Source: Minisyncoccota bacterium
Lineage (GTDB): Bacteria > Patescibacteriota > Minisyncoccia > Phycocordibacterales > CSBR16-193
Direction: 5' to 3'
NCBI GenBank assembly: GCA_040905715.1
Contig: JBBDRA010000003.1
Location: 135,075-199,074 of the forward strand
Length of the DNA stretch: 64,000 bases
Shown: positions 1,893 through 22,431 of the stretch, piece by piece
Layout of the letters: each line of letters begins with the position of its first letter
How positions within the stretch are numbered: position 1 is the first letter of the stretch
Position numbers and translations under genes: made by a program
Notes under the pieces: model-generated
What the model saw: only the letters and a program-made list of their open reading frames with translations
Database searches by the model: none
Told to the model about the DNA's origin: nothing

Positions 1893-4136
1893 CTATTGAG
1901 AAGGTGTCTTCGGCCACTGATGGACCATAAGAATGTCATCGGTGCTTGTGGTCGGAAGTAATGACCAGATCTTTTCAGTTATAAAGGGCATAAAAGGATG
2001 GAGTGCAATAATGCTTTGAGTCAAAATATAGTACAGCATCCATTCTGCAGACGCTCGAGTAGCGTCGTCGCTCCCATTTATAGCTTCTTTCTTCTCTTCT
2101 ATAATAACATCAGCAAATGTATGCCAGAAGTAGTCATAAAGTTTTTCTGAGGCAATATGGAGGTGGTATTGGTCGATCTCCTTTGTGGTCGTTTCAAAAA
2201 ACTCCCGAAACTCATTTATGCGTTCCTGATCATCTTGCGTGAGTGTGGGTTCTTCTTTTGTTATGTTCTCAGTTGATACATTGCTCAAAACAAAACGAGA
2301 TGCATTCCATATCTTATTGGCGAAGTGCTTGTAAGCCTTGATCTTGTTCTCAGAGAGCGAAAGATCCGTGCCGGGTGTGTTGCCGACAATGAGAGCCATC
2401 CGCAGTGCATCGGTCCCGAATTTTTCTATCTCTTCGAGTGGGTCGATCGCGTTGCCTTTTGATTTACTCATCTTCTCTCCCTTTGCGTCCCGTACCATGC
2501 CATGCAGGTATACTTTCTCAAACGGAATTTCTCCAAGGTGGTAGGTGCTCATTAAGACCATGCGTGAAACCCAGAACGGAAGAATGTCGTGCCCGGTCTC
2601 GAGCATGCTTGTAGGGTGGTACGTCTCCATATCAGTAGTTTTCTCCGGCCAGCCAAGAGTTGAAAAGGTCCAAAGACCTGAAGAGAACCAGGTATCAAGT
2701 GTGTCCGGGTCCTGCTCCCACCCGTCGCCATCAGGTGCTTCTGTTCCTACATAGATCTCTTGCCCGTCAGCCTTCGGCTGATCGGCCGGAGGCCGATACC
2801 ACACAGGTATTCTGTGACCGTACCAGATCTGCCTGCTAATACACCAATCGCGCAAGTTGTTTACCCAGTTAAGGTAGTTTTTAGTAAATCGATCGGGGAT
2901 GAATTGTATGTCGCCGCCTTCGATCGCGGCTCGCATTAAGGTTTTTAAGGTTACTGTCGCCCCATTCTCAATTCCGGTTATTTTTGACTGGGGAAGAGTA
3001 AATTCTTTGTTAACATCGATAAACCACTGCAACTTCGGTAAAGGCTCGATAATCCCGCCGCTTCTTTGAGCAGTTGAAATGTTCTGCTCGATCACGTCCT
3101 CTTTTTCGAGAAGACCATTTTCTCGTAACCACTTTGCTATCTCCTCACGGGCTTCGCGTGTCTTCTTTCCGTTCAGGAGGTCGTTATCCACTGTCATGCG
3201 TGCGCGTTCATCGATAACCTGGATCATGGGCAGATCGTGTCGTTCAGCTATCTCTGCGTCGGTCATGCTGTGCGCAGGAGTTACTCCAACAGCACCTGTG
3301 CCATATTCAGGATCTATTTCGTTATCGGCAACGATGAGCAGACTGAGGTTAACACCGCAGAATGTTACATCGAACTTCTTTCCGATGTACTGCTTGTATC
3401 GTTTGTCCTCCGGGTGAACTGCCACAGCTGTGTCGCCAACCTTTGTCTCCAGACGGGTTGTGGCTACAGGAATGGGGAAGTCAGCGCTGTAACGAAATGT
3501 GTACAGCGTTGCGGTGCCTTCCTCGTGCTCGACTTCTTCATCCGAAACGGTTGTCCGTCCTTTGGGATCCCAGTTCACAATACGATGACCACGGTAGATA
3601 AGTCCGTCATCGTACATTTTTTTAAAAGCGGTATATACTGCTTTTTGTCTTGGCTCGTCGAGTGTGAATGCCTCCCGCTTCCAATCAACTGACGCCCCCA
3701 TCCTCCTAATCTGATTTTGAATCGTTGACTGGCTTTCTGAGGCAAATTGATGGACCTCCTTAAGGAATGCTTCGCGACCGAGATCCTGTTTTTTAATACC
3801 TTTCTTGTCGAGCAGTTTCTCTACTTTCGATTGGGTTGCAATGGCGGCATGGTCCGTGCCTGGGATCCAGAGAGTTCGATATCCACGCATGCGTTTGTAA
3901 CGAACCATGATGTCCTCTATCGTGATGGTCAGAGCGTGTCCGTCATGCAATACACCGGTTACGTTCGGTGGCGGGAGAACAATAGAAAAACGTGGGGCAT
4001 CCGCAGGAATGACACCTTTTTCTATTTGGTCTTCAGGATGAAAACATCCCGACTCTAGCCAGTGGTCATAGATATTTTCTTCAACACTGCCCGGATCGTA
4101 CGGGGAAAGAAGTTCATTCGGGATATTTTGTTCCAT
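1893..4136 (-). CDS. valS: Valyl-tRNA synthetase (class I aaRS), compact 747-aa form
   Basis: HIGH-region PPPNVTGVLHDGHALT and KMSKSKGN motif. Editing-domain-like middle region. The length is short relative to typical ValRS. Confidence 0.85.
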   Translation of the reverse strand: MEQNIPNELLSPYDPGSVEENIYDHWLESGCFHPEDQIEKGVIPADAPRFSIVLPPPNVTGVLHDGHALTITIEDIMVRYKRMRGYRTLWIPGTDHAAIATQSKVEKLLDKKGIKKQDLGREAFLKEVHQFASESQSTIQNQIRRMGASVDWKREAFTLDEPRQKAVYTAFKKMYDDGLIYRGHRIVNWDPKGRTTVSDEEVEHEEGTATLYTFRYSADFPIPVATTRLETKVGDTAVAVHPEDKRYKQYIGKKFDVTFCGVNLSLLIVADNEIDPEYGTGAVGVTPAHSMTDAEIAERHDLPMIQVIDERARMTVDNDLLNGKKTREAREEIAKWLRENGLLEKEDVIEQNISTAQRSGGIIEPLPKLQWFIDVNKEFTLPQSKITGIENGATVTLKTLMRAAIEGGDIQFIPDRFTKNYLNWVNNLRDWCISRQIWYGHRIPVWYRPPADQPKADGQEIYVGTEAPDGDGWEQDPDTLDTWFSSGLWTFSTLGWPEKTTDMETYHPTSMLETGHDILPFWVSRMVLMSTYHLGEIPFEKVYLHGMVRDAKGEKMSKSKGNAIDPLEEIEKFGTDALRMALIVGNTPGTDLSLSENKIKAYKHFANKIWNASRFVLSNVSTENITKEEPTLTQDDQERINEFREFFETTTKEIDQYHLHIASEKLYDYFWHTFADVIIEEKKEAINGSDDATRASAEWMLYYILTQSIIALHPFMPFITEKIWSLLPTTSTDDILMVHQWPKTPSQ

Positions 4137-4293
4137 AAAATCTGGCGCATTTGTATACTATTGATAGTAGCATATAAAAATGGGCGTTTACAGTGAGCTC
4201 TTTTTGGAAAGAGCAAGTCTTTTTAAGAGACAAAACGATATAATGTCTTTTAAAAATAACGCTTAACCTAGCTGTCCTATTTGGATATATAAT

Positions 4294-4327
4294 GTCCTTT
4301 ATATAAAAACACGATTATATAAAGGAC
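4294..4327. promoter_or_regulatory. Perfect 12-bp inverted repeat GTCCTTTATATA-N10-TATATAAAGGAC in the divergent valS / giant-protein intergenic region
   Basis: Read directly from the sequence. Operator-like dyad symmetry in an AT-rich promoter region. A TTGACA-N18-TAGTAT promoter-like element lies at about 4413-4442. Confidence 0.35.
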
Positions 4328-4662
4328 ACTTTCTAAGTATTATAGCTAATTAGAGCCATATTTTGTTTTTTGTAAGGAGTAACACAGCCTTACCACATAA
4401 TAGATTGTTGATATTGACAAGAGCTAGAGAAGGGGCGTAGTATACATTTGAATATGATCTTTCTCTCAAATTCTATTCCTTCCGCTTAAATAGACCTTCT
4501 GTTTATTTAACCGGTTGGCACTAAATGAAATGACATAGATGAAGTGAGTTTCTTTAAGGGCTCTTGTTGTTGTGTGATCGATCAGATCCACTCTTCTTAA
4601 TTTATTGTTATTGATTGAAGTGTAATTAAAAATCTCCCTAGTTGTCTTAACAGTAGTACGAT

Positions 4663-7600
4663 ATGAATTATTACCAACCGATGATGTGCACATATACGAA
4701 ACGATTACTCTCCGTATGGGTAATTGCCTTCTTTGTGTTTGCTTTTGGTGGCGTTGTGTCAGGTGATGCAACCATTGTGTTTGCGGATAGCGCGACGACA
4801 TCTGAGCAAACACAGGAGCAAGAGGATGGCGAACAGAGTCAGTCTCAGACTCTTGGTGACATGGAGCAGAGTCAGGACCAGTCATTCTTTAATAATACTA
4901 ATGATGACAGTGATGATAGTGAAGAGGAGGATAATAAAAATGAACAAGACGACAATAACAAGGACAAGGAAGAAGAGGGTGATGATCAATCTCAAACTCA
5001 AACACAAGATCAAACATTAGACTCCACTTCAACCTCAACTTCAACACAAGACCAGTCTCAAGAGCAGGATGATGAGGGACAGTCTCAGTTTCAGTCACAA
5101 GATGTGAAAGAAAAGGCTCAGTGTGATAACCCAACCCCAAACGATGATCTGAGCGGTTCTATCGGACAAAATGGCGAGGCAACGGTTACGAACGATTCAG
5201 ACGTATGTGAATACGAGGTAGGACTTGCGTCATACAAAAAGTTCGACAATATCATCGACAACCAGGAGATATTTGATTTTGCAACAACAACAATAGGAAC
5301 AAGCACAACGATCGATCTTTCAATTGATGTGCCGCAGTGTGCATATCAGATCGATCTGTTCCACGGAGACGTGCTCATGTCTCTCGATGGACAGCGATAT
5401 ACAGATCGACTTCTTGATGCTGACCACCCAAACAATGCTGCCGGGTTCTGTGAAGTTCCAGAAGATCCTATCCACCCGACAGCTACTATCTCTGCTGATC
5501 CGGATGAAGTAGAAGAAGGCGACTCGACCGAGATCACGTGGGGTTCTGAGGATGCAGTTTCGTGTGAAAGTGATGATTTTGACACGGACAACGCAACATC
5601 AGGAACGATTACAGTAGACAATATTGTGAACGATACTACGTTTGAAGTGACCTGTGAGTCAGAAACCGGACACACGGCTTCTGACAGCGTGACTGTTGTA
5701 GTAACTCAGAAGGAGGAGTCGCAGCAATGTGAAAACCCTGATCCAAATGGTGACCTGAGCGGCTCTATCGGAAAAGATGGCGAGGCAACGGTTACGAACG
5801 ATTCAGACGTATGTGAATACGAGGTAGGACTTGCGTCATACAAAAAGTTCGACAATATCATCGACAACCAGGAGATATTTGATTTTGCAACAACAACAAT
5901 AGGAACAAGCACAACGATCGATCTTTCAATTGATGTGCCGCAGTGTGCATATCAGATCGATCTGTTCCACGGAGACGTGCTCATGTCTCTCGATGGACAG
6001 CGATATACAGATCGACTTCTTGATGCTGACCACCCAAACAATGCTGCCGGGTTCTGTGAAGTTCCAGAAGATCCTATCCACCCGACAGCTACTATCTCTG
6101 CTGATCCGGATGAAGTAGAAGAAGGCGACTCGACCGAGATCACGTGGGGTTCTGAGGATGCAGTTTCGTGTGAAAGTGATGATTTTGACACGGACAACGC
6201 AACATCAGGAACGATTACAGTAGACAATATTGTGAACGATACTACGTTTGAAGTGACCTGTGAGTCAGAAACCGGACACACTGATTCAGATAGTGTAACG
6301 GTTACTGTTATCGACGATGAGATCGAATGGTGTTCGTTTGAAGGTAAGGTCATTGACCACACGGATCACAGCGATGCTAAAACTCACAATGGTAGTGCTG
6401 TAAATTCAGATCGACGTGATGTTGACGGGGTTGAGAACGGACCGGCCTCAAACGTAAATACAGCCGGACAAGAGAAAAACTACTCGACTGACGACTTCTT
6501 CTCGTTAGGTGTTAATGGTTATCTTGTGTACGAATTCACAGACTCTGTGGTATTTGACCAAGCAGGAGCTGACATTGCTATCTACGAGATCACCGGTGGA
6601 GACGAAGATGAACAAACAGAGGAGAAGATAGAAGTATTGGTAAGTACCGATAACGTTACATATGAATCGCTCGGAATGTATACCGGTGACGCGTATGTAG
6701 ATATCGATTCTGCAGACCTACCGTTTGTAAAATACATTAAGCTTGTGGACCACACTCCGCACAACGTTCACGGTGGAGGCGGAGATGGCTACGATGTAGA
6801 CGCGATTATTATTTTGAATGGAAGTTGCGGAGATGCTGTGCTTCCATCAGTAGATCTCAAAGCTAACGGACAAAACGGACCGATCACCATCGACGAAGGA
6901 TCAACCACAACCCTCTCATGGGATGTAGAGGACGCAGATAGCTGTGTTGCCGGAGGCGACTGGAGCGGTTCAAAGACTGCAACGTCAAGCTCAGAGAACC
7001 TTGGCGAGTTGAGCGTCGGCAACTACTCATTCGACCTCACTTGTGCAAACGAACACGGCACCTCAAGTGATAGTGTTGATGTGACTGTCGAGGAGGATAC
7101 GAATGGTGGCGACGATGATAAAGAAATGACGATCGTTGCTTCTAAGATCGTTTGTGAAGATGAATCCGATCTGCCTAACTGGCACAGTGGTTCAAGTATT
7201 GATGCTGATACAGCGCAAACATTTGTCGACAACAATCCATCATGTGAATTTGCTGACGACTGGTCATTCCAATGGGGATATGAGGGAGTTAATGAGCTTC
7301 CAGGTGATCACATTGGAGAAGCTGATGGCTCAGCCGGTGTAGGTACTGATACTGGATCAGGGTCTGATGACTGGAAAACGTTCGGCCCTACCAACGCTAG
7401 CGGAACAGCTACGGTTGAGATAGAAGATACAAAAGATTCTTCACGTATCTGGGTTCGCGAAGTACTGAAGGATGGATTTGTGTCCTTTAGTGACGCAAAC
7501 TCACAGTCAGGCAATGTATCCGCTGAGATGTGGTGCCACAATGATGTTCTCAATTACGATAACTACGACTTTATTTCCAACCCACAGCTGGATAAAACAT

Positions 7601-9564
7601 ATTACTGTGTTTCAATCAACGCACTGATTGACACTGCAACAACGACGCTTCCATCAGTAGATCTCAAAGCTAACGGACAAAACGGACCGATCACCATCGA
7701 CGAAGGATCAACCACAACCCTCTCATGGGATGTAGAGGACGCAGATAGCTGTGTTGCCGGAGGCGACTGGAGCGGTTCAAAGACTGCAACGTCAAGCTCA
7801 GAGAACCTTGGCGAGTTGAGCGTCGGCAACTACTCATTCGACCTCACTTGTGCAAACGAACACGGCACCTCAAGTGATAGTGTTGATGTGAAGGTTAAGA
7901 AAGACGGAAACGGTGGTGGAGGCGACAACAAACCTGACGTTGACCTCAAAGCAAATGGCTCTAACGGACCGATCACTATCGATGAAGGATCGACAACAAC
8001 ATTGTCATGGACACTCGATCATGACCCGGAGACCTGTGTAGCTGGCGGTGACTGGAGTGGTTCAAAGGCTACAAGCTCTGACTCGGAATCACTTGGCCTG
8101 CTTAGTGTTGGTGACTACACGTTTGATCTCACGTGTGCAAACGAACACGGCACCTCAACCGATAGCGTTGATGTGACTGTCGAGGAGGACAACAACGGCG
8201 GTGGAGGGAACAAAGCTCCGACCGTTGACCTCAAGGCAAATGGCAGCAACTCTCTTACTGTAGATGAGGACACCGAAATAACTCTTGATTGGAGTATTGG
8301 CAACAACCCGGAGACATGTGTCGCCGGAGGCGATTGGAGTGGCTCTAAGGCTACAAGTTCTGATTCAGAACTTCTTGGTGAACTCAGTGAGGGAAATTAC
8401 AGTTACACGCTAACGTGTGCAAACGAACACGGCACCTCAAGTGACAGTGTTAATGTGACTGTTGAGGATGACAACAACGGTGGTGGAGGTGGTACCGGTG
8501 GAGGCAGTATAGTTACCGGCGGATGGATCGGCAATGGTATCGAACCTGACAGGAGACCGGAAGGTGAAGTGCTTGGTATTCAGTCATGTTCATACCTTGA
8601 AGACTTCTTGCACATTGACTGGAACAACGACCCTGTTGAAGTTGCTAAGCTTCAGTACTTCCTCAGAGAGTTTGAAGGCTACAATATCGATGTGACCACG
8701 GTCTTTGACCAGCACACCTATAACACAGTAGTTGATTTCCAGGAGCGATACTTCGACGAAGTACTTGCTCCGTGGGATCACACAGGGGGTACCGGCTTCG
8801 TTTACATCACTACTAAAACGAGGATCAACGAGATCGTTTGTCAGGAGGAGATCAACTTCACCGATGCGGAGCGCGAAGAGATGAGAGAGTTCCGTTCCTA
8901 CCTTGCTTCTATAGGGGGTGATTGGAGAGGTGGTCAAGGTGGTTTTGGAGCGGTTAGCGACACCAATGGTAGTGTTGCCGGAGTGAATGGTGTTGGTGGC
9001 GATAGCCCTGCTGCAGATGATCAGGATGATAATGCAGATGAAACAGGAACAACCTCAACCAGTAGTGGAGCAACGGACACCACGAACGGCTATCTAAGTA
9101 CGGTGGCTGATGTGTTAGGTACAGGTACAGGCACCATGGCCTCCTTCGCCGCTTCAGCTCTTAACTTCCCAAACACTACTGCTGAAGCTGCGCAGTGCTT
9201 GGTTAATCTTCTTTTGGTCCTTGCTATCATATTCTTGATAGGTACGATCATTGTGAACGCCCAAGAAACAGAGCACCTTTCAAAGAACACGCTGTGGGCT
9301 CGGCGCATCATGATCTATATTCTTGGAACCATTGTTGCCGGAGGTATTGCTTACTTTACAGCGCTATTCTGTCTCATTGTTCCATTGCTCGTTGTTCTTA
9401 TTATTCTTGCGGTCTCACTCTTGCTTGTGGTCAACAAGGATAATGGAGAAATTGAAAACGACGCAGTGTCTAATGGTGACCATGGATCTTCGTCCGGTAA
9501 TGGAGAAAAGAAAGGTCTTCGTGATTCAGTTCGATTTCACGAGGGGCATTCACATTCTCACTAG
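4663..9564 (+). CDS. Giant (1633 aa) acidic repeat-rich surface protein: N-terminal signal/anchor, D/E/Q/S/T low-complexity region, tandem ~200-aa repeats, four Ig-like ~85-aa repeats, PG_binding_1-like domain, C-terminal TM helices, His-rich tail
   Basis: N-terminal hydrophobic segment LLSVWVIAFFVFAFGGVVSG. Ig-like repeats carry the pattern LSW..C.AGGDWSGSK...G.Y.F.LTCANEHGTS.DSV.V. The segment VAKLQYFLREFEGYNIDVTTVFDQHTYNTVVDFQERY matches the peptidoglycan-binding-domain-1 signature. C-terminal helices are LVNLLLVLAIIFLIGTIIV and ALFCLIVPLLVVLIILAVSLLLVV. The tail is HEGHSHSH. Confidence 0.7.
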   Translation: MNYYQPMMCTYTKRLLSVWVIAFFVFAFGGVVSGDATIVFADSATTSEQTQEQEDGEQSQSQTLGDMEQSQDQSFFNNTNDDSDDSEEEDNKNEQDDNNKDKEEEGDDQSQTQTQDQTLDSTSTSTSTQDQSQEQDDEGQSQFQSQDVKEKAQCDNPTPNDDLSGSIGQNGEATVTNDSDVCEYEVGLASYKKFDNIIDNQEIFDFATTTIGTSTTIDLSIDVPQCAYQIDLFHGDVLMSLDGQRYTDRLLDADHPNNAAGFCEVPEDPIHPTATISADPDEVEEGDSTEITWGSEDAVSCESDDFDTDNATSGTITVDNIVNDTTFEVTCESETGHTASDSVTVVVTQKEESQQCENPDPNGDLSGSIGKDGEATVTNDSDVCEYEVGLASYKKFDNIIDNQEIFDFATTTIGTSTTIDLSIDVPQCAYQIDLFHGDVLMSLDGQRYTDRLLDADHPNNAAGFCEVPEDPIHPTATISADPDEVEEGDSTEITWGSEDAVSCESDDFDTDNATSGTITVDNIVNDTTFEVTCESETGHTDSDSVTVTVIDDEIEWCSFEGKVIDHTDHSDAKTHNGSAVNSDRRDVDGVENGPASNVNTAGQEKNYSTDDFFSLGVNGYLVYEFTDSVVFDQAGADIAIYEITGGDEDEQTEEKIEVLVSTDNVTYESLGMYTGDAYVDIDSADLPFVKYIKLVDHTPHNVHGGGGDGYDVDAIIILNGSCGDAVLPSVDLKANGQNGPITIDEGSTTTLSWDVEDADSCVAGGDWSGSKTATSSSENLGELSVGNYSFDLTCANEHGTSSDSVDVTVEEDTNGGDDDKEMTIVASKIVCEDESDLPNWHSGSSIDADTAQTFVDNNPSCEFADDWSFQWGYEGVNELPGDHIGEADGSAGVGTDTGSGSDDWKTFGPTNASGTATVEIEDTKDSSRIWVREVLKDGFVSFSDANSQSGNVSAEMWCHNDVLNYDNYDFISNPQLDKTYYCVSINALIDTATTTLPSVDLKANGQNGPITIDEGSTTTLSWDVEDADSCVAGGDWSGSKTATSSSENLGELSVGNYSFDLTCANEHGTSSDSVDVKVKKDGNGGGGDNKPDVDLKANGSNGPITIDEGSTTTLSWTLDHDPETCVAGGDWSGSKATSSDSESLGLLSVGDYTFDLTCANEHGTSTDSVDVTVEEDNNGGGGNKAPTVDLKANGSNSLTVDEDTEITLDWSIGNNPETCVAGGDWSGSKATSSDSELLGELSEGNYSYTLTCANEHGTSSDSVNVTVEDDNNGGGGGTGGGSIVTGGWIGNGIEPDRRPEGEVLGIQSCSYLEDFLHIDWNNDPVEVAKLQYFLREFEGYNIDVTTVFDQHTYNTVVDFQERYFDEVLAPWDHTGGTGFVYITTKTRINEIVCQEEINFTDAEREEMREFRSYLASIGGDWRGGQGGFGAVSDTNGSVAGVNGVGGDSPAADDQDDNADETGTTSTSSGATDTTNGYLSTVADVLGTGTGTMASFAASALNFPNTTAEAAQCLVNLLLVLAIIFLIGTIIVNAQETEHLSKNTLWARRIMIYILGTIVAGGIAYFTALFCLIVPLLVVLIILAVSLLLVVNKDNGEIENDAVSNGDHGSSSGNGEKKGLRDSVRFHEGHSHSH
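5118..6304. repeat. Two near-perfect tandem copies of a 606-bp unit inside the giant gene
   Basis: Spurious ORFs at 5324..5512 and 5930..6118 are identical (offset 606 nt), and so are those at 5346..5675 and the tail of 5952..6362. The encoded ~185-aa segments, GEATVTNDSDVCEYEV...FEVTCESETGHT, are identical between copies. Confidence 0.8.
6835..7095. repeat. Copy 1 of a ~255-bp perfect repeat (Ig-like domain) inside the giant gene
   Basis: Encodes LPSVDLKANGQNGPITIDEGSTTTLSWDVEDADSCVAGGDWSGSKTATSSSENLGELSVGNYSFDLTCANEHGTSSDSVDV. It is identical to the copy at about 7648-7905 at the protein level and essentially identical at the nucleotide level. Confidence 0.75.
7648..7905. repeat. Copy 2 of the ~255-bp perfect repeat; two more diverged copies follow at about 7920-8190 and 8220-8470
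   Basis: Same peptide as copy 1. Copies 3 and 4 are roughly 70% identical (DLKANGSNGPITIDEGSTTTLSWTLDHDPETCVAGGDWSGSKATSSDSE...). Confidence 0.75.
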
Positions 9565-9637: not shown

Positions 9638-10840
9638 CTAGTCTTTTTTAATTCGCTTTTCTTCAAGAGAAAGGTTGCCAATAGCTTGGATCTGGCTAGG
9701 GTCTTGAAGTATAAGTGAAGGGTCGTATTGTGAGCGAATCCATCCAGCTAGGGCGATCATGAGCGCGTTGTCGCCGGTGAGTGCACGTGAGGCAATATGT
9801 GCCTCTGGAAGGCCACTATGAGCCTTAAATGAGCTTATAAGGCGTGTATTAGCGGCTACTCCTCCGGCAATAAGGATAGAGGATGCTCCATACGCATCAC
9901 ATGCACGCTCTGTTTTGGTCAGGAGGGTTTCAACGACTGCATCTTCAAATTCTCGAGATATACCCTGCTTTTGTTTATCAGTAAGTTCAGCAGTCGACTC
10001 GGCGATCTTTATGTTTTCTATGCCGTTGCGTACGGCTGTTTTTATTCCGGAAAAAGAGAAATTAAGATCGCCGGAGTTAAGCATTGGCCGAGGAAGAGCG
10101 AAGGGCGATGCGGTATCATCTTCACGTGCTTGTGTTGCCAGTTTTGATATTTCCGGACCTCCCGGATAGGGAAGCCCTAGCAAGCGCGCCACCTTGTCGA
10201 ATGCTTCTCCCGCAGCGTCGTCTACCGTCTGGCCAATGATCGAGTAGTCGCCCCAGGCTTTGATGAATACAAGCTCAGTGTGACCACCTGATACAAGAAG
10301 CGCGAGAGCGGGAAATTCTATTTTGCGTAATGGCTGCGCGGTGGCGCTTGCGGGGTCTTCTATAAGAAGGGAGGATATATGCCCTTCCATGTGGTTGACC
10401 GGTATTACCGGTACCTGCCAAGCGGCGCTGAGTGACTTGGCAAGATTGATACCAACCCAAAGCGTTGGTTCCAGGCCGGGGCCGTGTGTGACAGCGACAG
10501 CATCGATGTTTGGCTTGGGAGTTTTGGATAGGAAGGCGAGAAGAGCTTCGGCGAGTCCGGTCTCTCGAGCAAGTAGTTCGGTTATCTGGTTTTGTACCGT
10601 TTGTGATATATCGGGGACAGATGTGCCGAGAGCGGTTTTTTCAAGTGTCTTTTTTATAAGAGGAACAGCGTTTTGTGCATGCTCACGCTTTGCCAGGGAA
10701 GGAAAGACGCCGCCGTACTCTCGGTGAATGTCAATCTGGGAGAGTATCTCGTGGGCGTGTATTGTGACCGATGAACCGTCGATGTCGATTAATGCAAAGG
10801 AGGTTTCATCACAGCTTGTTTCGATCGAGAGAAGCTTCAT
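9638..10840 (-). CDS. tsaD: tRNA N6-adenosine threonylcarbamoyltransferase TsaD/Kae1 family (400 aa, C-terminal extension)
   Basis: N-terminus MKLLSIETSCDETSFALI matches the TsaD signature (GIETSCDDT). Metal-binding HMEGH. ASKH-fold glycine-rich motifs. Confidence 0.85.
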   Translation of the reverse strand: MKLLSIETSCDETSFALIDIDGSSVTIHAHEILSQIDIHREYGGVFPSLAKREHAQNAVPLIKKTLEKTALGTSVPDISQTVQNQITELLARETGLAEALLAFLSKTPKPNIDAVAVTHGPGLEPTLWVGINLAKSLSAAWQVPVIPVNHMEGHISSLLIEDPASATAQPLRKIEFPALALLVSGGHTELVFIKAWGDYSIIGQTVDDAAGEAFDKVARLLGLPYPGGPEISKLATQAREDDTASPFALPRPMLNSGDLNFSFSGIKTAVRNGIENIKIAESTAELTDKQKQGISREFEDAVVETLLTKTERACDAYGASSILIAGGVAANTRLISSFKAHSGLPEAHIASRALTGDNALMIALAGWIRSQYDPSLILQDPSQIQAIGNLSLEEKRIKKD

Positions 10841-11529
10841 AGGTAATTATCTATAACTTTGTTGCAATAGCGGTTGAACAGATGTTTCAGCCTCCTTTGT
10901 ATATGAATGTTGCCACACCTTACATGGCAAACCCCTTTATAGTAAGAATAAGTTTTCGATCCTTTTGTTCTAAGATCTTTGGATACAGTGGTAAAATTTT
11001 TCAGAGGTAACTTGAGCTGTTGTGACCAATAGTGTTTGATCGTATCAGGGTCTTGGTCTGCCCGAATATTAAGTTCACAACGTATTTGACTATCTTCGAT
11101 TCTGTAAAGTTTTCTCAGGCTGGCTATGAAAAACTTTAGCACAAAGGGATCTGAATTTCCGAGTGCCGTTTCCCCATTTCTTTTTGAACCTTCACCTAAA
11201 TAGAGAAGAGCAAGAGAAAGTTCTAAAAAAGTTTCTTGCGTCGTATCTATTTTTTCGAACACCTCTTCTGCTTCCTTTTGGGCGTGGGCGATTCTTTTCT
11301 CCTTTTCGTTCTTATGCCATTGCGTAGCCTTTTTTCGAGCTTCAACAAGACCTCTTTCCCATCTTTTGCGTAACTGGTCTTGGTGTTTTTTAGAAATCTT
11401 TATATCTTTGAACCATCCACTAAGAGTGGAACGGGGTATACCAAGCTTGACTTCGATATCTCGTATAGAATTTCCCGATTGGCGCAGAAGCAAAGCTTTT
11501 TCTTTTTTATGGAACCACTTAGACTGCAT
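10837..11529 (-). CDS. HTH + LAGLIDADG-like homing-endonuclease-family protein
   Basis: N-terminal HTH (IRDIEVKLGIPRSTLSGWF). The internal block LALLYLGEGSK resembles single-motif LAGLIDADG endonucleases (hydrophobic-hydrophobic-G-D/E-G-S). Overlaps the tsaD stop by 4 nt. The attribution is tentative. Confidence 0.4.
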   Translation of the reverse strand: MQSKWFHKKEKALLLRQSGNSIRDIEVKLGIPRSTLSGWFKDIKISKKHQDQLRKRWERGLVEARKKATQWHKNEKEKRIAHAQKEAEEVFEKIDTTQETFLELSLALLYLGEGSKRNGETALGNSDPFVLKFFIASLRKLYRIEDSQIRCELNIRADQDPDTIKHYWSQQLKLPLKNFTTVSKDLRTKGSKTYSYYKGVCHVRCGNIHIQRRLKHLFNRYCNKVIDNYL

Positions 11530-11798: not shown

Positions 11799-11881
11799 GG
11801 AGGGGTCGGATAATGGCTATTCCACCGCTTTCGAAAAGCGGCGCCTTCACGGGCTTGCGGGTTCGAGTCCCGCCCTCTCCG
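11799..11881 (+). tRNA. tRNA-Ser (anticodon CGA), long variable arm; apparent integration site of the downstream AT-rich island
   Basis: GGAGGGGTCGGATAATGGCTATTCCACCGCTTTCGAAAAGCGGCGCCTTCACGGGCTTGCGGGTTCGAGTCCCGCCCTCTCCG. Anticodon arm CCGCT-TTCGAAA-AGCGG, T-arm GCGGG-TTCGAGT-CCCGC. Confidence 0.75.
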
Positions 11882-11950
11882 CAGTAAAAATTTAGTATCG
11901 GAAGACCCGAATACCCTTATTTTTAGGGATTTCTAGAAACCGATGAAAGT

Positions 11951-21120: not shown

Positions 21121-22431
21121 TTACGCCATCAAATCAACTTTCTTGTCTTTTACTGTTAACCTACTCTTAAGACAATTCATCAGCTCTCGCTTCTCATCGT
21201 TGGTACCCTCCTGCAGAAGGTACTTTGCATACGTCCTCATATCAAACTCTTTTATTTTTGATTCATCTTCATGCAAGATTCCTTTCCTAAATTTATTGAA
21301 TCGTTTCAGTTCATCTTCAAACTTCTTTTGTATACCTAGTTCGCTGACACTCACTTTATCAATGATTCCAATTAGTTGTTTTATTAAATCTTCTTCACGC
21401 AGATACGGATTTTTGCAGTGTCGATCTCGTGATCTACCACAACCGTAGTAGATGTATTTGGCGGTCGTGCCGTCACGGAGTTTTTTGTATTTCTCTTCAG
21501 CTGAGATACCTGATCCGCACTTGCCACAGAGCATGAGTTTGGTGAAGGCAAACTCCTTATGCTCTCTAACAATCTTATCTCGTTTCAAATGCTCTTGAGC
21601 TTCGTCAAATAGCTCTTTAGTGATGAGCGGTTTGTGCTTTCCTTGATACCAGTTGCCGGAGTCTCGTGGATACTCAAAGACACCGTAATAGAACGGATTG
21701 TCGAGCAGTCGGTAGATACCGCTAAGAGTAAGTGGTTTGTTTCCTCTGGTATGGAAATTAAGTTCAAATCGAAGCCAATGATACAACTTTCTGCCAGACC
21801 ATTTATCGTGTGCCACCTTCTCAAACATCTGCCTTACCACATGACCGCGCTCAGGATCGACTAGTAACAAACCTTTCTTGTCGGTTCGTTTTTGGTTGAG
21901 ATATCCTAATGGTGCCACCGTCGGCCAGTATCCCATCTCACAACGTGCCCTGAGTCCTCGCTTCACGTTAATGCCTCGGTTATCGTTCTCAAGCTTGGCC
22001 TGTGAGCCAAGAATCATTAGGAGGAACTTCTCATTCGGATTATTAGTGAACACCTGTCCATATGTTCGTATCTCATGGAGTTTCCCTTGGTCCATTAGAT
22101 CAACAACTGCGCCGAGGTCTCCGGCATTCCTCGACAGACGATCAGGTGCCCATGCCAGAATACCGGTATACTTGCCAACCCTAACCTCATCCATCAGCTC
22201 ATTGAATACTGGCCTCTGAGCAGTATCTTTGGCTGAATGACTCTCGCGCTTAATATCTACCACTTCAAGCCCTTCACGCTCAGCCAACTGAAGCATCTCC
22301 TTGATCTGCGAATCGATTGAAAGTACCTGACGTTCTTCGCTCTCGGTACTTTTTCGTGAGTACAAGCAGTACTTTATCTTTTCTTTCGGTACTACTTGGT
22401 TTTGCTCCTTTTCTTGTACTGGTATCTCCAT
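21121..22431 (-). CDS. Large serine recombinase (resolvase-domain integrase)
   Basis: N-terminal resolvase domain YCLYSRKSTESEERQVLSIDSQ with catalytic Ser. Recombinase domain, zinc-ribbon cysteines (CGKCGS...YYGCGRSRDRHC) and a C-terminal coiled-coil. Confidence 0.9.
   Translation of the reverse strand: MEIPVQEKEQNQVVPKEKIKYCLYSRKSTESEERQVLSIDSQIKEMLQLAEREGLEVVDIKRESHSAKDTAQRPVFNELMDEVRVGKYTGILAWAPDRLSRNAGDLGAVVDLMDQGKLHEIRTYGQVFTNNPNEKFLLMILGSQAKLENDNRGINVKRGLRARCEMGYWPTVAPLGYLNQKRTDKKGLLLVDPERGHVVRQMFEKVAHDKWSGRKLYHWLRFELNFHTRGNKPLTLSGIYRLLDNPFYYGVFEYPRDSGNWYQGKHKPLITKELFDEAQEHLKRDKIVREHKEFAFTKLMLCGKCGSGISAEEKYKKLRDGTTAKYIYYGCGRSRDRHCKNPYLREEDLIKQLIGIIDKVSVSELGIQKKFEDELKRFNKFRKGILHEDESKIKEFDMRTYAKYLLQEGTNDEKRELMNCLKSRLTVKDKKVDLMA

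Follow-up and report, generated by a model that had tools for sequence, protein, structure and literature searches.

A large, acidic, probable surface protein with a predicted wall-binding module and long internal repeats, encoded between valS and tsaD in Paceibacteria

The gene, its neighbours and its domain architecture

Within the window (the whole 64-kb stretch of DNA that was analysed), a predicted surface-protein gene lies between valS, divergent upstream, and tsaD, convergent downstream (Table 1). An identical protein is recorded at NCBI as a hypothetical protein of MAGs labelled "MAG: Candidatus Paceibacterota", a label that confirms the CPR affiliation claimed in the initial annotation. 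Searching the PDB with the whole protein as query returned no match. D and E make up 19.3% of its residues, versus 4.0% for K and R, and its net charge is -15.3 per 100 residues, compared with -9.9 to +1.5 for neighbouring proteins; acidity is a trait of this protein and not of the proteome.

Domain borders were mapped by phmmer against homologues. The resulting architecture consists of an N-terminal hydrophobic signal or anchor, an acidic spacer, about ten beta-sandwich modules, a divergent PG_binding_1 module and C-terminal transmembrane (TM) helices. The composition and the hydrophobic segment at residues 13–41 bear out the earlier description of a giant, acidic protein in which an N-terminal signal or anchor is followed by an acidic spacer. 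The N-terminal segment may be a Sec signal peptide, which would be cleaved, or an N-terminal anchor. Homologues of the acidic spacer were found only among near-identical proteins.

The Ig-like repeats that had been claimed were recognised by profile searches, with matches to K319L-like_PKD (PF22352; 59.4 bits against a cut-off of 27, in six stretches), InlK_D3 (41.6 bits against 25) and PKD (PF00801; 29.9 bits against 23.5). The X domain, aligned over 24 sequences, has four conserved cysteines, and its AF2 model (pLDDT 94) is a seven-strand beta-sandwich whose PDB fold matches were generic and FnIII-like only (TM below 0.5). A weak match of this domain to DUF5873 (E = 0.002; 19 bits against a cut-off of 32.6) was disregarded. 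The M2 ("KIVC") domain, which also carries four conserved cysteines, is kept in homologues P0002–P0014, and M1 homologues are limited to P0007 and, weakly, P0022. No Pfam family was found for X, M1 or M2, and the M1 and M2 profiles had no match in the PDB. Since these three domains match no characterised family, no binding activity can be assigned to them.

At the C-terminus, the claimed TM helices correspond to hydrophobic segments at residues 1505–1536 and 1549–1595. The arrangement of the first is common to most family members, and the second, by its sequence, may form a TM2–TM3 hairpin, followed by a presumably cytoplasmic tail. Sortase anchoring of the LPXTG type was rejected, as no sorting motif ([LIVN]P.[TSA]G) occurs anywhere in the protein.

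Table 1. Genes, domains and repeat elements of the locus, with positions counted from the first letter of the window
Feature	Position	Strand	Residues and remarks	Basis
valS (valyl-tRNA synthetase)	1893..4136	-	divergent upstream neighbour, conserved	
Surface-protein CDS	4663..9564	+	1,633 aa; stop included	
N-terminal hydrophobic segment	4699..4785	+	aa 13-41; preceded by K13 R14	Kyte-Doolittle scan
Acidic low-complexity spacer	4795..5115	+	aa 45-151; D/E/Q/S/T-rich; net charge -29	sequence
Repeat unit 1	5116..5721	+	aa 152-353; X domain (152-268) and Ig-like IgA (269-353)	
Exact 505-nt core, unit 1	5171..5675	+	offset 606 to 5777-6281	
129-nt patch, unit 1	5310..5438	+	27 differences from sibling assembly L001	
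Repeat unit 2	5722..6303	+	aa 354-547; X and IgA	
Exact 505-nt core, unit 2	5777..6281	+		
129-nt patch, unit 2	5916..6044	+	same 27 differences from L001	
M1 domain	6304..6828	+	aa 548-722; uncharacterised	
IgB copy 1 (PKD-like)	6829..7098	+	aa 723-812; exact 245 nt at 6840-7084	
M2 ("KIVC") domain	7099..7638	+	aa 813-992	
IgB copy 2	7639..7917	+	aa 993-1085; exact 245 nt at 7647-7891	
IgB copy 3	7918..8190	+	aa 1086-1176; 74-79% nt identity to copy 2	
IgB copy 4	8191..8472	+	aa 1177-1270; 62-65% nt identity	
Gly-rich hinge	8473..8547	+	aa 1271-1295	sequence
Ct module	8548..8937	+	aa 1296-1425; divergent PG_binding_1 three-helix domain and C-terminal helix	
Linker	8938..9174	+	aa 1426-1504; G/S/T/D-rich; from wall-binding module to membrane anchor	
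TM1 hydrophobic helix	9175..9270	+	aa 1505-1536	hydrophobicity scan
Hydrophobic segment	9307..9447	+	aa 1549-1595; 47 aa with central Pro	hydrophobicity scan
Short C-terminal tail	9448..9561	+	aa 1596-1633; ends in HEGHSHSH	sequence
tsaD	9638..10840	-	convergent downstream neighbour, conserved	

The Ct module and the valS-tsaD position

The PG_binding_1-like motif flagged in the initial annotation lies at residues 1326–1363 (nt 8638–8751), the same span as the Pfam match to PF01471. When the domain was scanned alone, this match scored 24.1–24.4 bits against a gathering cut-off of 23 (E = 3–4e-5) and covered only positions 4–41 of the 57 in the profile; scanning the full-length protein gave 19.5 bits, below the cut-off. 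Across the Ct family, PF01471 was matched in 24 of 26 members (best E = 8.7e-10). In a Foldseek search of the PDB with an AF2 model of the module (pLDDT 85; core 96–98), the top 14 matches were all proteins with PG-binding domains, including SleB (6tci; TMt 0.78, rmsd 2.5), CtpB, 5tv7, EpsAB, the AP3 and FTEbC1 endolysins, SleC and 4xxt, with probabilities of 0.9–1.0 and weak E-values (0.17 or worse). The family-wide profile match thus bears out the PG_binding_1-like assignment, and the modelled segment has the expected structural similarity, its top PDB folds being PG_binding_1 domains only. We regard Ct as a predicted divergent PG_binding_1 module that may bind peptidoglycan.

Ct shares a profile match and a helical bundle with the PG_binding_1 domains of SleB, CtpB, phage endolysins and C. 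difficile 5tv7; the TM score against the SleB N-domain was 0.78, and the rmsd over the PG_binding_1 fold matches ranged from 2.1 to 2.8 Å. Unlike those domains, Ct sits on a non-enzymatic fibre rather than a hydrolase or protease, is extended by a pair of conserved cysteines (C14 and C98 of the module), a PWG-x-TG-(F/Y)VY motif and an additional helix at the C-terminus, and in all cases has a low-complexity linker and then TM helices after it. An exhaustive HMMER search with the module recovered 5,819 representative clusters at E <= 1e-3. Typical members of the family have a hydrophobic segment at the N-terminus, the same poly-Gly hinge ahead of the module and one to three hydrophobic helices about 70–100 residues past it.

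Genomic context was compared across the best 80 of 191 confirmed genomic matches, all of them from Patescibacteria. Among these 80 loci, tsaD was convergent downstream in 65 and valS divergent upstream in 51, and both genes flanked the ORF in 49. ORF lengths ranged from 249 to 1,677 residues, the shortest being cut by contig ends. Paceibacteria lineages with the valS-tsaD arrangement share only 43–78% identity in ValRS, and the sister species L003, at 78% in ValRS and 85% in Ct, has a different module order. The Paceibacteria valS-tsaD surface-protein locus is a definition made here and not a published family; the gene in the window falls within it, having the Ct module, linker and TM helices between a divergent valS and a convergent tsaD. 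In this window, the gene represents an orthologue defined by its position and conserved throughout Paceibacteria, in which the ectodomains vary between species and the PG-binding and TM anchor is conserved. As a separate observation, no att-like direct repeat of the tRNA-Ser end of at least 14 nt was found on the far side of the low-GC island.

Collectively, we consider it probable that the gene encodes a fibrillar surface protein of a Paceibacterota (CPR) bacterium with a predicted wall-binding module and a predicted C-terminal membrane anchor; a candidate host-attachment role in an episymbiont is plausible. Points that weigh against this explanation include a PG_binding_1 cut-off that is passed only when the domain is scanned alone, the weak Foldseek E-values of the Ct model, and an N-terminus that, if uncleaved, would mean anchoring at both ends instead of one. 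The conserved valS-tsaD position fits a core envelope component as well as a specialised adhesin. It is possible, though we lean against it, that the protein is not a host adhesin at all and instead serves as a structural part of the envelope (a wall-membrane tether, a surface coat or an S-layer-like spacer), with an ectodomain that varies under phage or grazer pressure and not through host matching. A position conserved over lineages so diverged in ValRS is typical of core genes, a conserved anchor with a variable ectodomain suits such a component, and profile searches of the protein and its domains against Pfam found no recognised adhesin or lectin domain. By contrast, no SLH or other S-layer anchoring or lattice family appeared among the Pfam matches at E <= 1, Ig/PKD rods with distal variable domains form a classic adhesin layout, and an attachment role has been proposed for similar giant proteins of Vampirococcus, a CPR bacterium in culture (PMC8080830). 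The structural and adhesin readings are not mutually exclusive.

Giant PKD/DUF11 membrane proteins with a proposed attachment role have been described in CPR bacteria (PMC8080830), and the large exoproteins of P. danicum have been suggested to undergo domain reshuffling (PMC11809585). The giant proteins of Vampirococcus lugosii and Patescibacterium danicum (PMC8080830; PMC11809585) resemble the present one in phylum, in size (>1,300 aa), in their predicted membrane or surface location, in PKD, DUF11 and fibronectin-type modules (DUF11 occurring here in homologues P0004–P0024), and in proposed attachment and rapid domain reshuffling. The likeness described is one of features. The present protein differs in having a defined conserved anchor (PG_binding_1-like module and TM helices) and a conserved valS-tsaD position, and no FhaB-type domain was found among its Pfam matches.

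Internal repeats and the 129-nt patch

The near-perfect duplication of a 606-bp unit noted in the initial annotation was recovered as an exact core of 505 nt (167 codons, 100% identical), but the unit is not perfect from end to end: overall identity is about 96%, and the edges are diverged, with 12 mismatches in 5119–5170 and 10 in 5676–5700. The 5' edge retains 78% nucleotide identity, with five synonymous and five non-synonymous codons, and the 3' edge 52%, with seven synonymous codons. A second Ig-like unit was likewise correctly described as present in two identical and two diverged copies, being exact over 245 nt at an offset of 807 (6840–7084 and 7647–7891) and diverged at about 7939–8244 (74–79% identity) and 8214–8526 (62–65%). 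Only the 606-nt units are strictly tandem; a 180-residue unrelated domain parts the two identical Ig units. Tandem Repeats Finder reported no repeat, as both periods are longer than the 500 nt that it allows.

Exact matches of 505 and 245 nt are too long to have arisen by chance. A duplication invented by the assembler was also rejected, because diverged edges and unique junctions of its own bound each copy and because three assemblies agree, the same repeat structure being found in two further assemblies, L001 and L002. The "very recent duplication" proposed earlier is contradicted by edges that are 22–48% diverged and rich in synonymous changes. The duplication is old, with only the core homogenised, and gene conversion is the putative homogenising process.

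Predictions of length and phase variation fared differently. The repeat offsets are multiples of three (202 and 269 codons), so that recombination would alter length and not phase, and between 4137 and 9564 we found no homopolymer of at least 8 bases and no 2–6-nt unit repeated at least five times; phase variation is not supported. In-frame change of length by 202 or 269 codons is possible, but none was seen, as the three full-length assemblies have equal copy number and all encode 1,633 residues. Exact in-frame repeats of at least 100 nt were found in 14 of the 80 related loci (the best 80 of 191 matches).

Rib/alpha-C of group B Streptococcus, SasG/Aap, Esp and Bap are repeat-bearing wall-anchored surface proteins of Gram-positive bacteria, and they combine an export signal, a distal non-repeat or ligand region, an Ig-like stalk of in-frame DNA repeats and a C-terminal envelope attachment. 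The present protein resembles this group in its N-terminal signal, distal non-repeat region and C-terminal envelope attachment, and in an Ig-like stalk encoded by long identical or near-identical in-frame DNA repeats (cores of 505 and 245 nt here), the number of which recombination may change. It differs in lacking an LPXTG motif and any Rib, G5 or E match in Pfam, in attaching through a PG_binding_1-like module and a polytopic C-terminal membrane anchor, and in having only two identical copies per repeat family, with no copy-number variation across three assemblies.

Comparison of the window with L001 revealed identity over 11,882 nt (11.9 kb) save for a 129-nt patch, which is swapped in both copies of the repeat. 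Relative to L001, the patch is 21% diverged, with 15 synonymous and 6 non-synonymous codons, and its 27 differences span 11 of the 12 substitution types and fall mostly at third codon positions. The six amino-acid differences lie where the X-domain family itself varies, and homologues show either residue state; LLDA-H and KLDW-H, for instance, each occur among them. Within the 64-kb window, no further copy of the patch (blastn) or of any protein domain (tblastn) was detected, and no closer X-domain homologue was found among 5.8 billion database proteins. A JGI metagenome scan with a 41-mer beside the patch gave no match.

Neisseria pilE/pilS and Borrelia vlsE are antigenic variation systems based on gene conversion, and they share with the present case the swapping of a short surface-gene segment for a diverged, synonymous-rich homologue in otherwise identical genomes. 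In contrast to both, no silent cassette array was found in the 64 kb or among database proteins, the adjacent tandem copy is the only candidate donor, and the pattern here is possibly an assembly artefact; a silent donor cassette of the pilS/vls type was rejected on these grounds. A diversity-generating retroelement was also rejected, given that the substitutions are of 11 of 12 types, mostly synonymous and not adenine-specific. The two in-genome unit copies are identical, unlike a TR/VR pair, and no reverse transcriptase was seen among the ORFs scanned.

We give an even chance to the explanation that the true 606-nt units differ, at least in the patch, with one variant per copy, and that a k=55 de Bruijn assembler merged the internal bubble and traversed the shared node twice, making the 505-nt repeat artificially exact. 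Each assembly would then show a single variant in both copies, and a copy number of two would be a minimum only. In line with such a collapse, the same 27 substitutions appear in both copies of genomes otherwise identical over 11,882 nt; they are mostly synonymous, the variants therefore being old alleles or paralogues, and their 21% divergence equals that of the paralogous 5' edge (22%). With no other X copy in 64 kb and no closer homologue, the other tandem copy is the only evident donor. In the fragmented WEC58 assembly, one contig begins exactly 55 nt short of the 245-nt repeat's end, the mark left where an edge of a k=55 de Bruijn graph exits a collapsed repeat node, and this break in a fourth assembly makes assembler bubble collapse as likely as real concerted evolution. 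metaSPAdes merges bulges aggressively; the contig of the sibling MAG L003 has a SPAdes-style name, and related loci with exact repeats longer than 141 nt are all on NODE_ (SPAdes) contigs. On the other hand, the diverged repeat edges were assembled correctly, and the same variant appears in two of the three full-length assemblies, which fits chance but also a dominant strain.

Alternatively, both copies may truly carry the same patch within each strain, opposite variants having been fixed by conversion between the tandem copies, or by import from an unsampled relative followed by conversion. Such concerted evolution or allele switching, which we consider rather unlikely, would amount to simple surface-antigen variation with the X domain as its target. 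The patch pattern shared by window and L001, with its 27 substitutions in both copies, also fits here; the six amino-acid changes at family-variable positions, with both states found in homologues, point in this direction, as does the recurrence of exact in-frame repeats across separate studies, in 14 of the 80 orthologous loci. Other large surface proteins of CPR bacteria have likewise been suggested to undergo domain reshuffling and antigenic variation (PMC11809585). Several points speak against this reading: it calls for two or more recent events in strains that otherwise match throughout 11.9 kb, neither the 64-kb window nor the database proteins yielded a silent donor cassette, the absence of adenine specificity excludes a diversity-generating retroelement, and the k=55 contig break marks the repeats as collapsed graph nodes. 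The exactness of the repeats may be overstated in part by short-read assembly, and gene conversion, as invoked in our preferred explanation, rests on repeat identity that is possibly partly made by the assembler. As a caution, in MAGs built from short reads, graph simplification can produce long repeats that look exact and a semblance of concerted evolution, for which read-level checks are needed first.

Proposed mechanism and significance

In our proposed model, the N-terminal signal or anchor would direct export of the protein, three hydrophobic helices at the C-terminus would fix it in the cytoplasmic membrane, and the divergent PG_binding_1 module, about 80 residues further out, would serve as a non-covalent tether to the wall. 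Beyond this module, a glycine hinge would lead into an outward rod of about ten beta-sandwich modules, predicted to comprise four PKD-like IgB domains, M2, M1 and two IgA and X pairs, and to end in a probably disordered acidic tip of 107 residues. The disulfide-stapled X domains near the tip would be the best candidates for ligand contact. The signal and the PG-binding/TM anchor would stay fixed while every species builds its own ectodomain anew out of shuffled modules; the long exact repeats would be old in-frame domain duplications whose cores were homogenised by intragenic gene conversion. Recombination between copies could add or remove whole domains, but would not be able to switch the gene off.

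A wider and, in our view, improbable reading is that the valS-tsaD locus encodes the principal envelope fibre of the class Paceibacteria, with a fixed anchor and an ectodomain under constant reconstruction through in-frame duplication, exchange of modules and gene conversion within the gene, and that the 129-nt patch represents a true switch between two allelic states, made uniform over the two X domains of a given strain. If true, an ultra-small bacterium would have a minimal means of varying its surface that needs no cassettes.

CPR/Patescibacteria account for a large share of bacterial diversity, and their cell build and cell contact are mostly unknown beyond cultured Saccharibacteria. What is new here is a recognisable conserved anchor, made up of a PG_binding_1-like module and TM helices, in thousands of protein clusters, together with a fixed chromosomal position, between valS and tsaD, that houses a highly variable surface protein. 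Together, the anchor and the locus offer a handle for surface proteomics, cryo-ET labelling, recombinant peptidoglycan-binding assays and comparisons of ectodomain turnover.

Domain organization of the proposed fibre protein

The gene of the proposed surface fibre, here the fibre gene (ORF 4663..9564, + strand), encodes a product of 1,633 aa. NCBI lists an identical protein, annotated as hypothetical and derived from Candidatus Paceibacterota MAGs, under two accessions (17.5 kb and 523 kb contigs), a 99%-identical protein (P0001) comes from a third MAG, and in a fourth, WEC58, the gene is split into two fragments. The protein contains 19.3% D+E and 4.0% K+R, giving a net charge of -15.3 per 100 aa; since thirteen other proteins of the window range only from -9.9 to +1.5, this acidity is peculiar to the fibre protein. 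The intergenic region upstream (4137-4662) is unusually long at 526 nt and contains a single good sigma-70-like site (TTGACA-18-TAGTAT, 4414-4443), from which a leader of ~220 nt would result.

Domain map of the fibre protein
Feature	Position (aa)	Remark
Hydrophobic N-terminus	13-41	
Acidic low-complexity spacer	45-151	
[X + IgA] unit, two copies	152-353 and 354-547	
M1	548-722	
IgB, single copy	723-812	
M2	813-992	
IgB, three copies	993-1270	
Gly hinge	1271-1295	
Ct module	1296-1425	
G/S/T/D-rich linker	1426-1504	
Hydrophobic helices	1505-1536 and 1549-1595	second has a central Pro and is long enough for a hairpin
His-rich tail	1596-1633	

The Ig units scored above Pfam thresholds of the PKD type (K319L-like_PKD, 59.4 bits, six stretches). 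The X domain, a widely conserved unit of 115 aa with four conserved Cys and the motifs VGLASYxKFDxIIDNQ and CAYQIDLFxGxxLxSLDGQRYGxRLL, has no Pfam family; its AlphaFold2 model is a confident seven-strand beta-sandwich (pLDDT 94) that matched only generic FnIII-like sandwiches in the PDB (TM < 0.5). Homologues of M1 and M2 were found in proteins of a similar kind, and neither domain matched Pfam or PDB sequences. X and M2 recur in a protein that carries the NCBI label of a Candidatus Woesearchaeota archaeon (DPANN), and X in a Chloroflexi MAG protein (homologues P0014 and P0023; the labels are the sources' own). Ultra-small bacteria and archaea may have surface-protein modules in common. A second architecture was observed in homologues P0004-P0021, which combine the same X and M2 modules with another C-terminus, consisting of a conserved SL(S/T)QVPYTGFEAGP motif, one TM helix and a conserved soluble domain of ~250 aa ending in AVKMAIMKAVK. 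These proteins are without the PG_binding_1-like module and represent an alternative anchoring for the same ectodomain vocabulary.

The initial annotation had proposed a peptidoglycan-binding-like segment, which lies in the Ct module. The PG_binding_1 profile PF01471 scored 19.5 bits against the full-length protein, below the 23-bit cut-off, and 24.1-24.4 bits when the Ct domain was scanned alone. An exhaustive HMMER search returned the module in 5,819 representative clusters at E <= 1e-3, usually 250-300 residues before the C-terminus of proteins of 190 to 6,588 aa. Members typically have a hydrophobic segment at the N-terminus and a poly-Gly hinge ahead of the module, which is followed by a low-complexity linker and one to three hydrophobic helices. 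The AF2 model of the module (pLDDT 85, core 96-98) retrieved only PG_binding_1 proteins as its best PDB folds (SleB N-domain, CtpB, 5tv7, endolysins and SleC), with a TM of 0.78 and an rmsd of 2.5 A to the SleB N-domain. Because this model finds PG_binding_1 folds and 24 of 26 sampled Ct modules match the profile (best E 8.7e-10), the putative wall-binding module of the fibre protein is by both profile and fold a divergent representative of PG_binding_1. The earlier proposal was thus not refuted by the test that it had set itself, a lack of structural similarity in modelling.

Repeats within the fibre gene

Two adjoining 606-nt units share an exact match (5171-5675 and 5777-6281, offset 606) of 505 nt, a length to be read as an upper bound on identity, with two as a lower bound on copy number. 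A second exact repeat, of 245 nt, lies at 6840-7084 and 7647-7891 (offset 807); an unrelated domain of 180 aa lies between its two identical Ig units, and two further copies follow at 74-79% and 62-65% identity. Tandem Repeats Finder reported no repeat in the gene, as these periods exceed the program's limit. The homologous edges of the 606-nt units are diverged (12 mismatches at 5119-5170, 10 at 5676-5700). Codon-by-codon comparison of the two units yielded 78% nucleotide identity at the 5' edge (5 synonymous and 5 non-synonymous codons), complete identity across the 167 codons of the core, and 52% nucleotide identity at the 3' edge, where the protein sequence is largely kept through synonymous changes. 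The units are an old duplication whose core has been homogenised. The repeats noted initially were confirmed and are perfect over the 505-nt and 245-nt cores but not at the edges of the 606-nt units; the very recent duplication offered as one of two causes for them is not what the units show.

The initial interpretation as a whole is partly supported, and its prediction of phase variation needs correcting. Both offsets are divisible by three (202 and 269 codons), and no simple-sequence tracts occur in the gene or its leader, so that unequal recombination would add or remove whole domains and would not cause on/off phase variation. In-frame length variation is possible in principle, but none was observed, the protein being 1,633 aa in all three full-length assemblies.

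Direct repeats that are exact, intragenic and in frame and measure 100 nt or more were present in 14 of 80 orthologous Patescibacteria loci (L003-L082); the two longest are those of L025 (585 nt, offset 852) and L065 (514 nt, offset 1374). Every offset is divisible by 3, and the repeats end as abruptly as in the fibre gene; the trait recurs in the fibre gene family, or in the assembly of that family. In P0002, a Patescibacteria relative, a block of ~250 aa (M2 and an Ig-like unit) is duplicated with protein-identical copies, and the contig stops inside the second copy, another coincidence of long repeat and assembly break.

The window is identical to the sibling assembly L002 over 11,927 nt, and to a second sibling, L001, over 11,882 nt save for 27 substitutions in a patch at 5310-5438 and the same 27 at 5916-6044. 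They change 15 codons synonymously and 6 non-synonymously and include 11 of the 12 types of substitution; the six amino-acid changes fall at family-variable X positions, with both residue states found among homologues. The difference, a divergence of 21% equal to that of the paralogous 5' edge, is old and not recent mutation. DGR mutagenesis was rejected because of the spread of substitution types and the excess of synonymous changes. No further copy of the segment was detected in the 64-kb window, nor a closer homologue in the database, leaving the other tandem copy as the only evident source of the second variant.

We give an even chance to the reading that the genome holds one variant per copy and that, in assembly, the internal bubble was fused and the common node traversed two times. 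metaSPAdes merges bulges aggressively. Three observations favour this reading. The WEC58 contig encoding P0032 (equivalent to window 7030-8841) starts with precisely the last 55 nt of the first 245-nt copy, as expected of a k=55 de Bruijn graph edge that exits a collapsed node; this shows such repeats to be collapsed nodes of the assembly graphs. SPAdes-style contig names occur in the same assembly batch, including the sister-species locus L003, and every exact repeat >141 nt in the related loci sits in a NODE_ contig. That both copies are truly alike in each strain through concerted evolution is a less likely alternative, needing two or more recent events in genomes that do not differ otherwise; mixed populations take up the remaining probability. 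Under either of the first two readings, there was recently a state in which the copies differed at the patch. Read-level confirmation is needed both for the exactness of the repeats and for the apparent concerted swap of the patch.

A conserved valS-tsaD locus in Patescibacteria

Scanning one genome per GTDB species for the Ct module gave 191 confirmed matches, the best 80 of which are from Patescibacteria without exception, including Paceibacterota, Zambryskibacteria, Ryanbacteria, Wildermuthbacteria, Campbellbacteria and the Parcubacteria group. Directly downstream, tsaD is convergent in 65 of these 80 loci, only 66 of which have sufficient downstream sequence; upstream, valS is divergent in 51, only 54 having >6 kb of upstream sequence, and both genes flank the ORF in 49. 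ValRS identity to the window runs from 43% to 78%, indicating that the arrangement spans deep lineages. The ORF between valS and tsaD encodes 249 to 1,677 aa with differing modules, the shortest being truncated at contig ends. In L003, the signal is 67% and the Ct module 85% identical to the window, and the ectodomain has one X domain, another N-terminal domain and a DUF4114-like insert. Given this synteny, the retained signal and Ct module and the differing modules, the fibre gene represents, in this genome, a positional orthologue whose anchor is fixed and whose ectodomain changes fast. We found no description of the valS-tsaD locus or of its anchor architecture in the literature searched, which does not prove that none exists; the conserved anchor and conserved locus are among the most useful outcomes of this analysis, together with the corrected reading of the repeats and the caution about their exactness.

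Further along, an ORF at 10837-11529 (-) overlaps the tsaD start by 4 nt; its 230-aa product has no Pfam match and weak homologues (25-28% identity) in three related loci, L003, L007 and L038. A low-GC island (12000-36000; GC 0.32-0.39 vs 0.46-0.48 in the flanks; boundary 11799-11927) starts just past tRNA-Ser(CGA) at 11799-11882 and encodes a large serine recombinase (21121-22431), a ResIII helicase, a DUF2779 protein and two DNA methyltransferases. At its edge, two sibling assemblies have contig ends, at 11882 and 11927. No att-like direct repeat of at least 14 nt was found for the island, which probably represents an integrative element that varies between strains and carries a restriction-modification system.

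Proposed architecture and place among surface proteins

What is observed is the ORF with its module families and their folds, its hydrophobic segments, the conservation of the anchor and the synteny; on this basis we propose a model in which the protein would be exported by Sec, with three C-terminal helices in the membrane and the K/R-rich loop and His-rich tail inside the cell. The flexible 80-residue linker would put the PG_binding_1 module into the wall, followed by the glycine hinge and a rod of ~ten beta-sandwich modules, which at 3.5-4.5 nm per domain would extend tens of nanometres and end in a disordered, acidic tip. Close to it, the paired X domains would be the likeliest ligand-contact elements. 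The putative ligand may be the surface of a host cell, or a mineral or cations; alternatively, the fibre may bind nothing specific and serve as a coat or spacer.

The fibre protein would work similarly to the repeat-bearing wall-anchored proteins of Gram-positive bacteria (Rib/alpha-C, SasG/Aap and Esp) but lies outside that group, since it has neither an LPXTG motif nor Rib/G5 domains. It belongs to the giant PKD/DUF11-type surface proteins, a loosely defined class already noted in CPR genomes (PMC8080830, PMC11809585). Its core-gene-like synteny argues that the fibre protein is a standard component of the Paceibacteria envelope.
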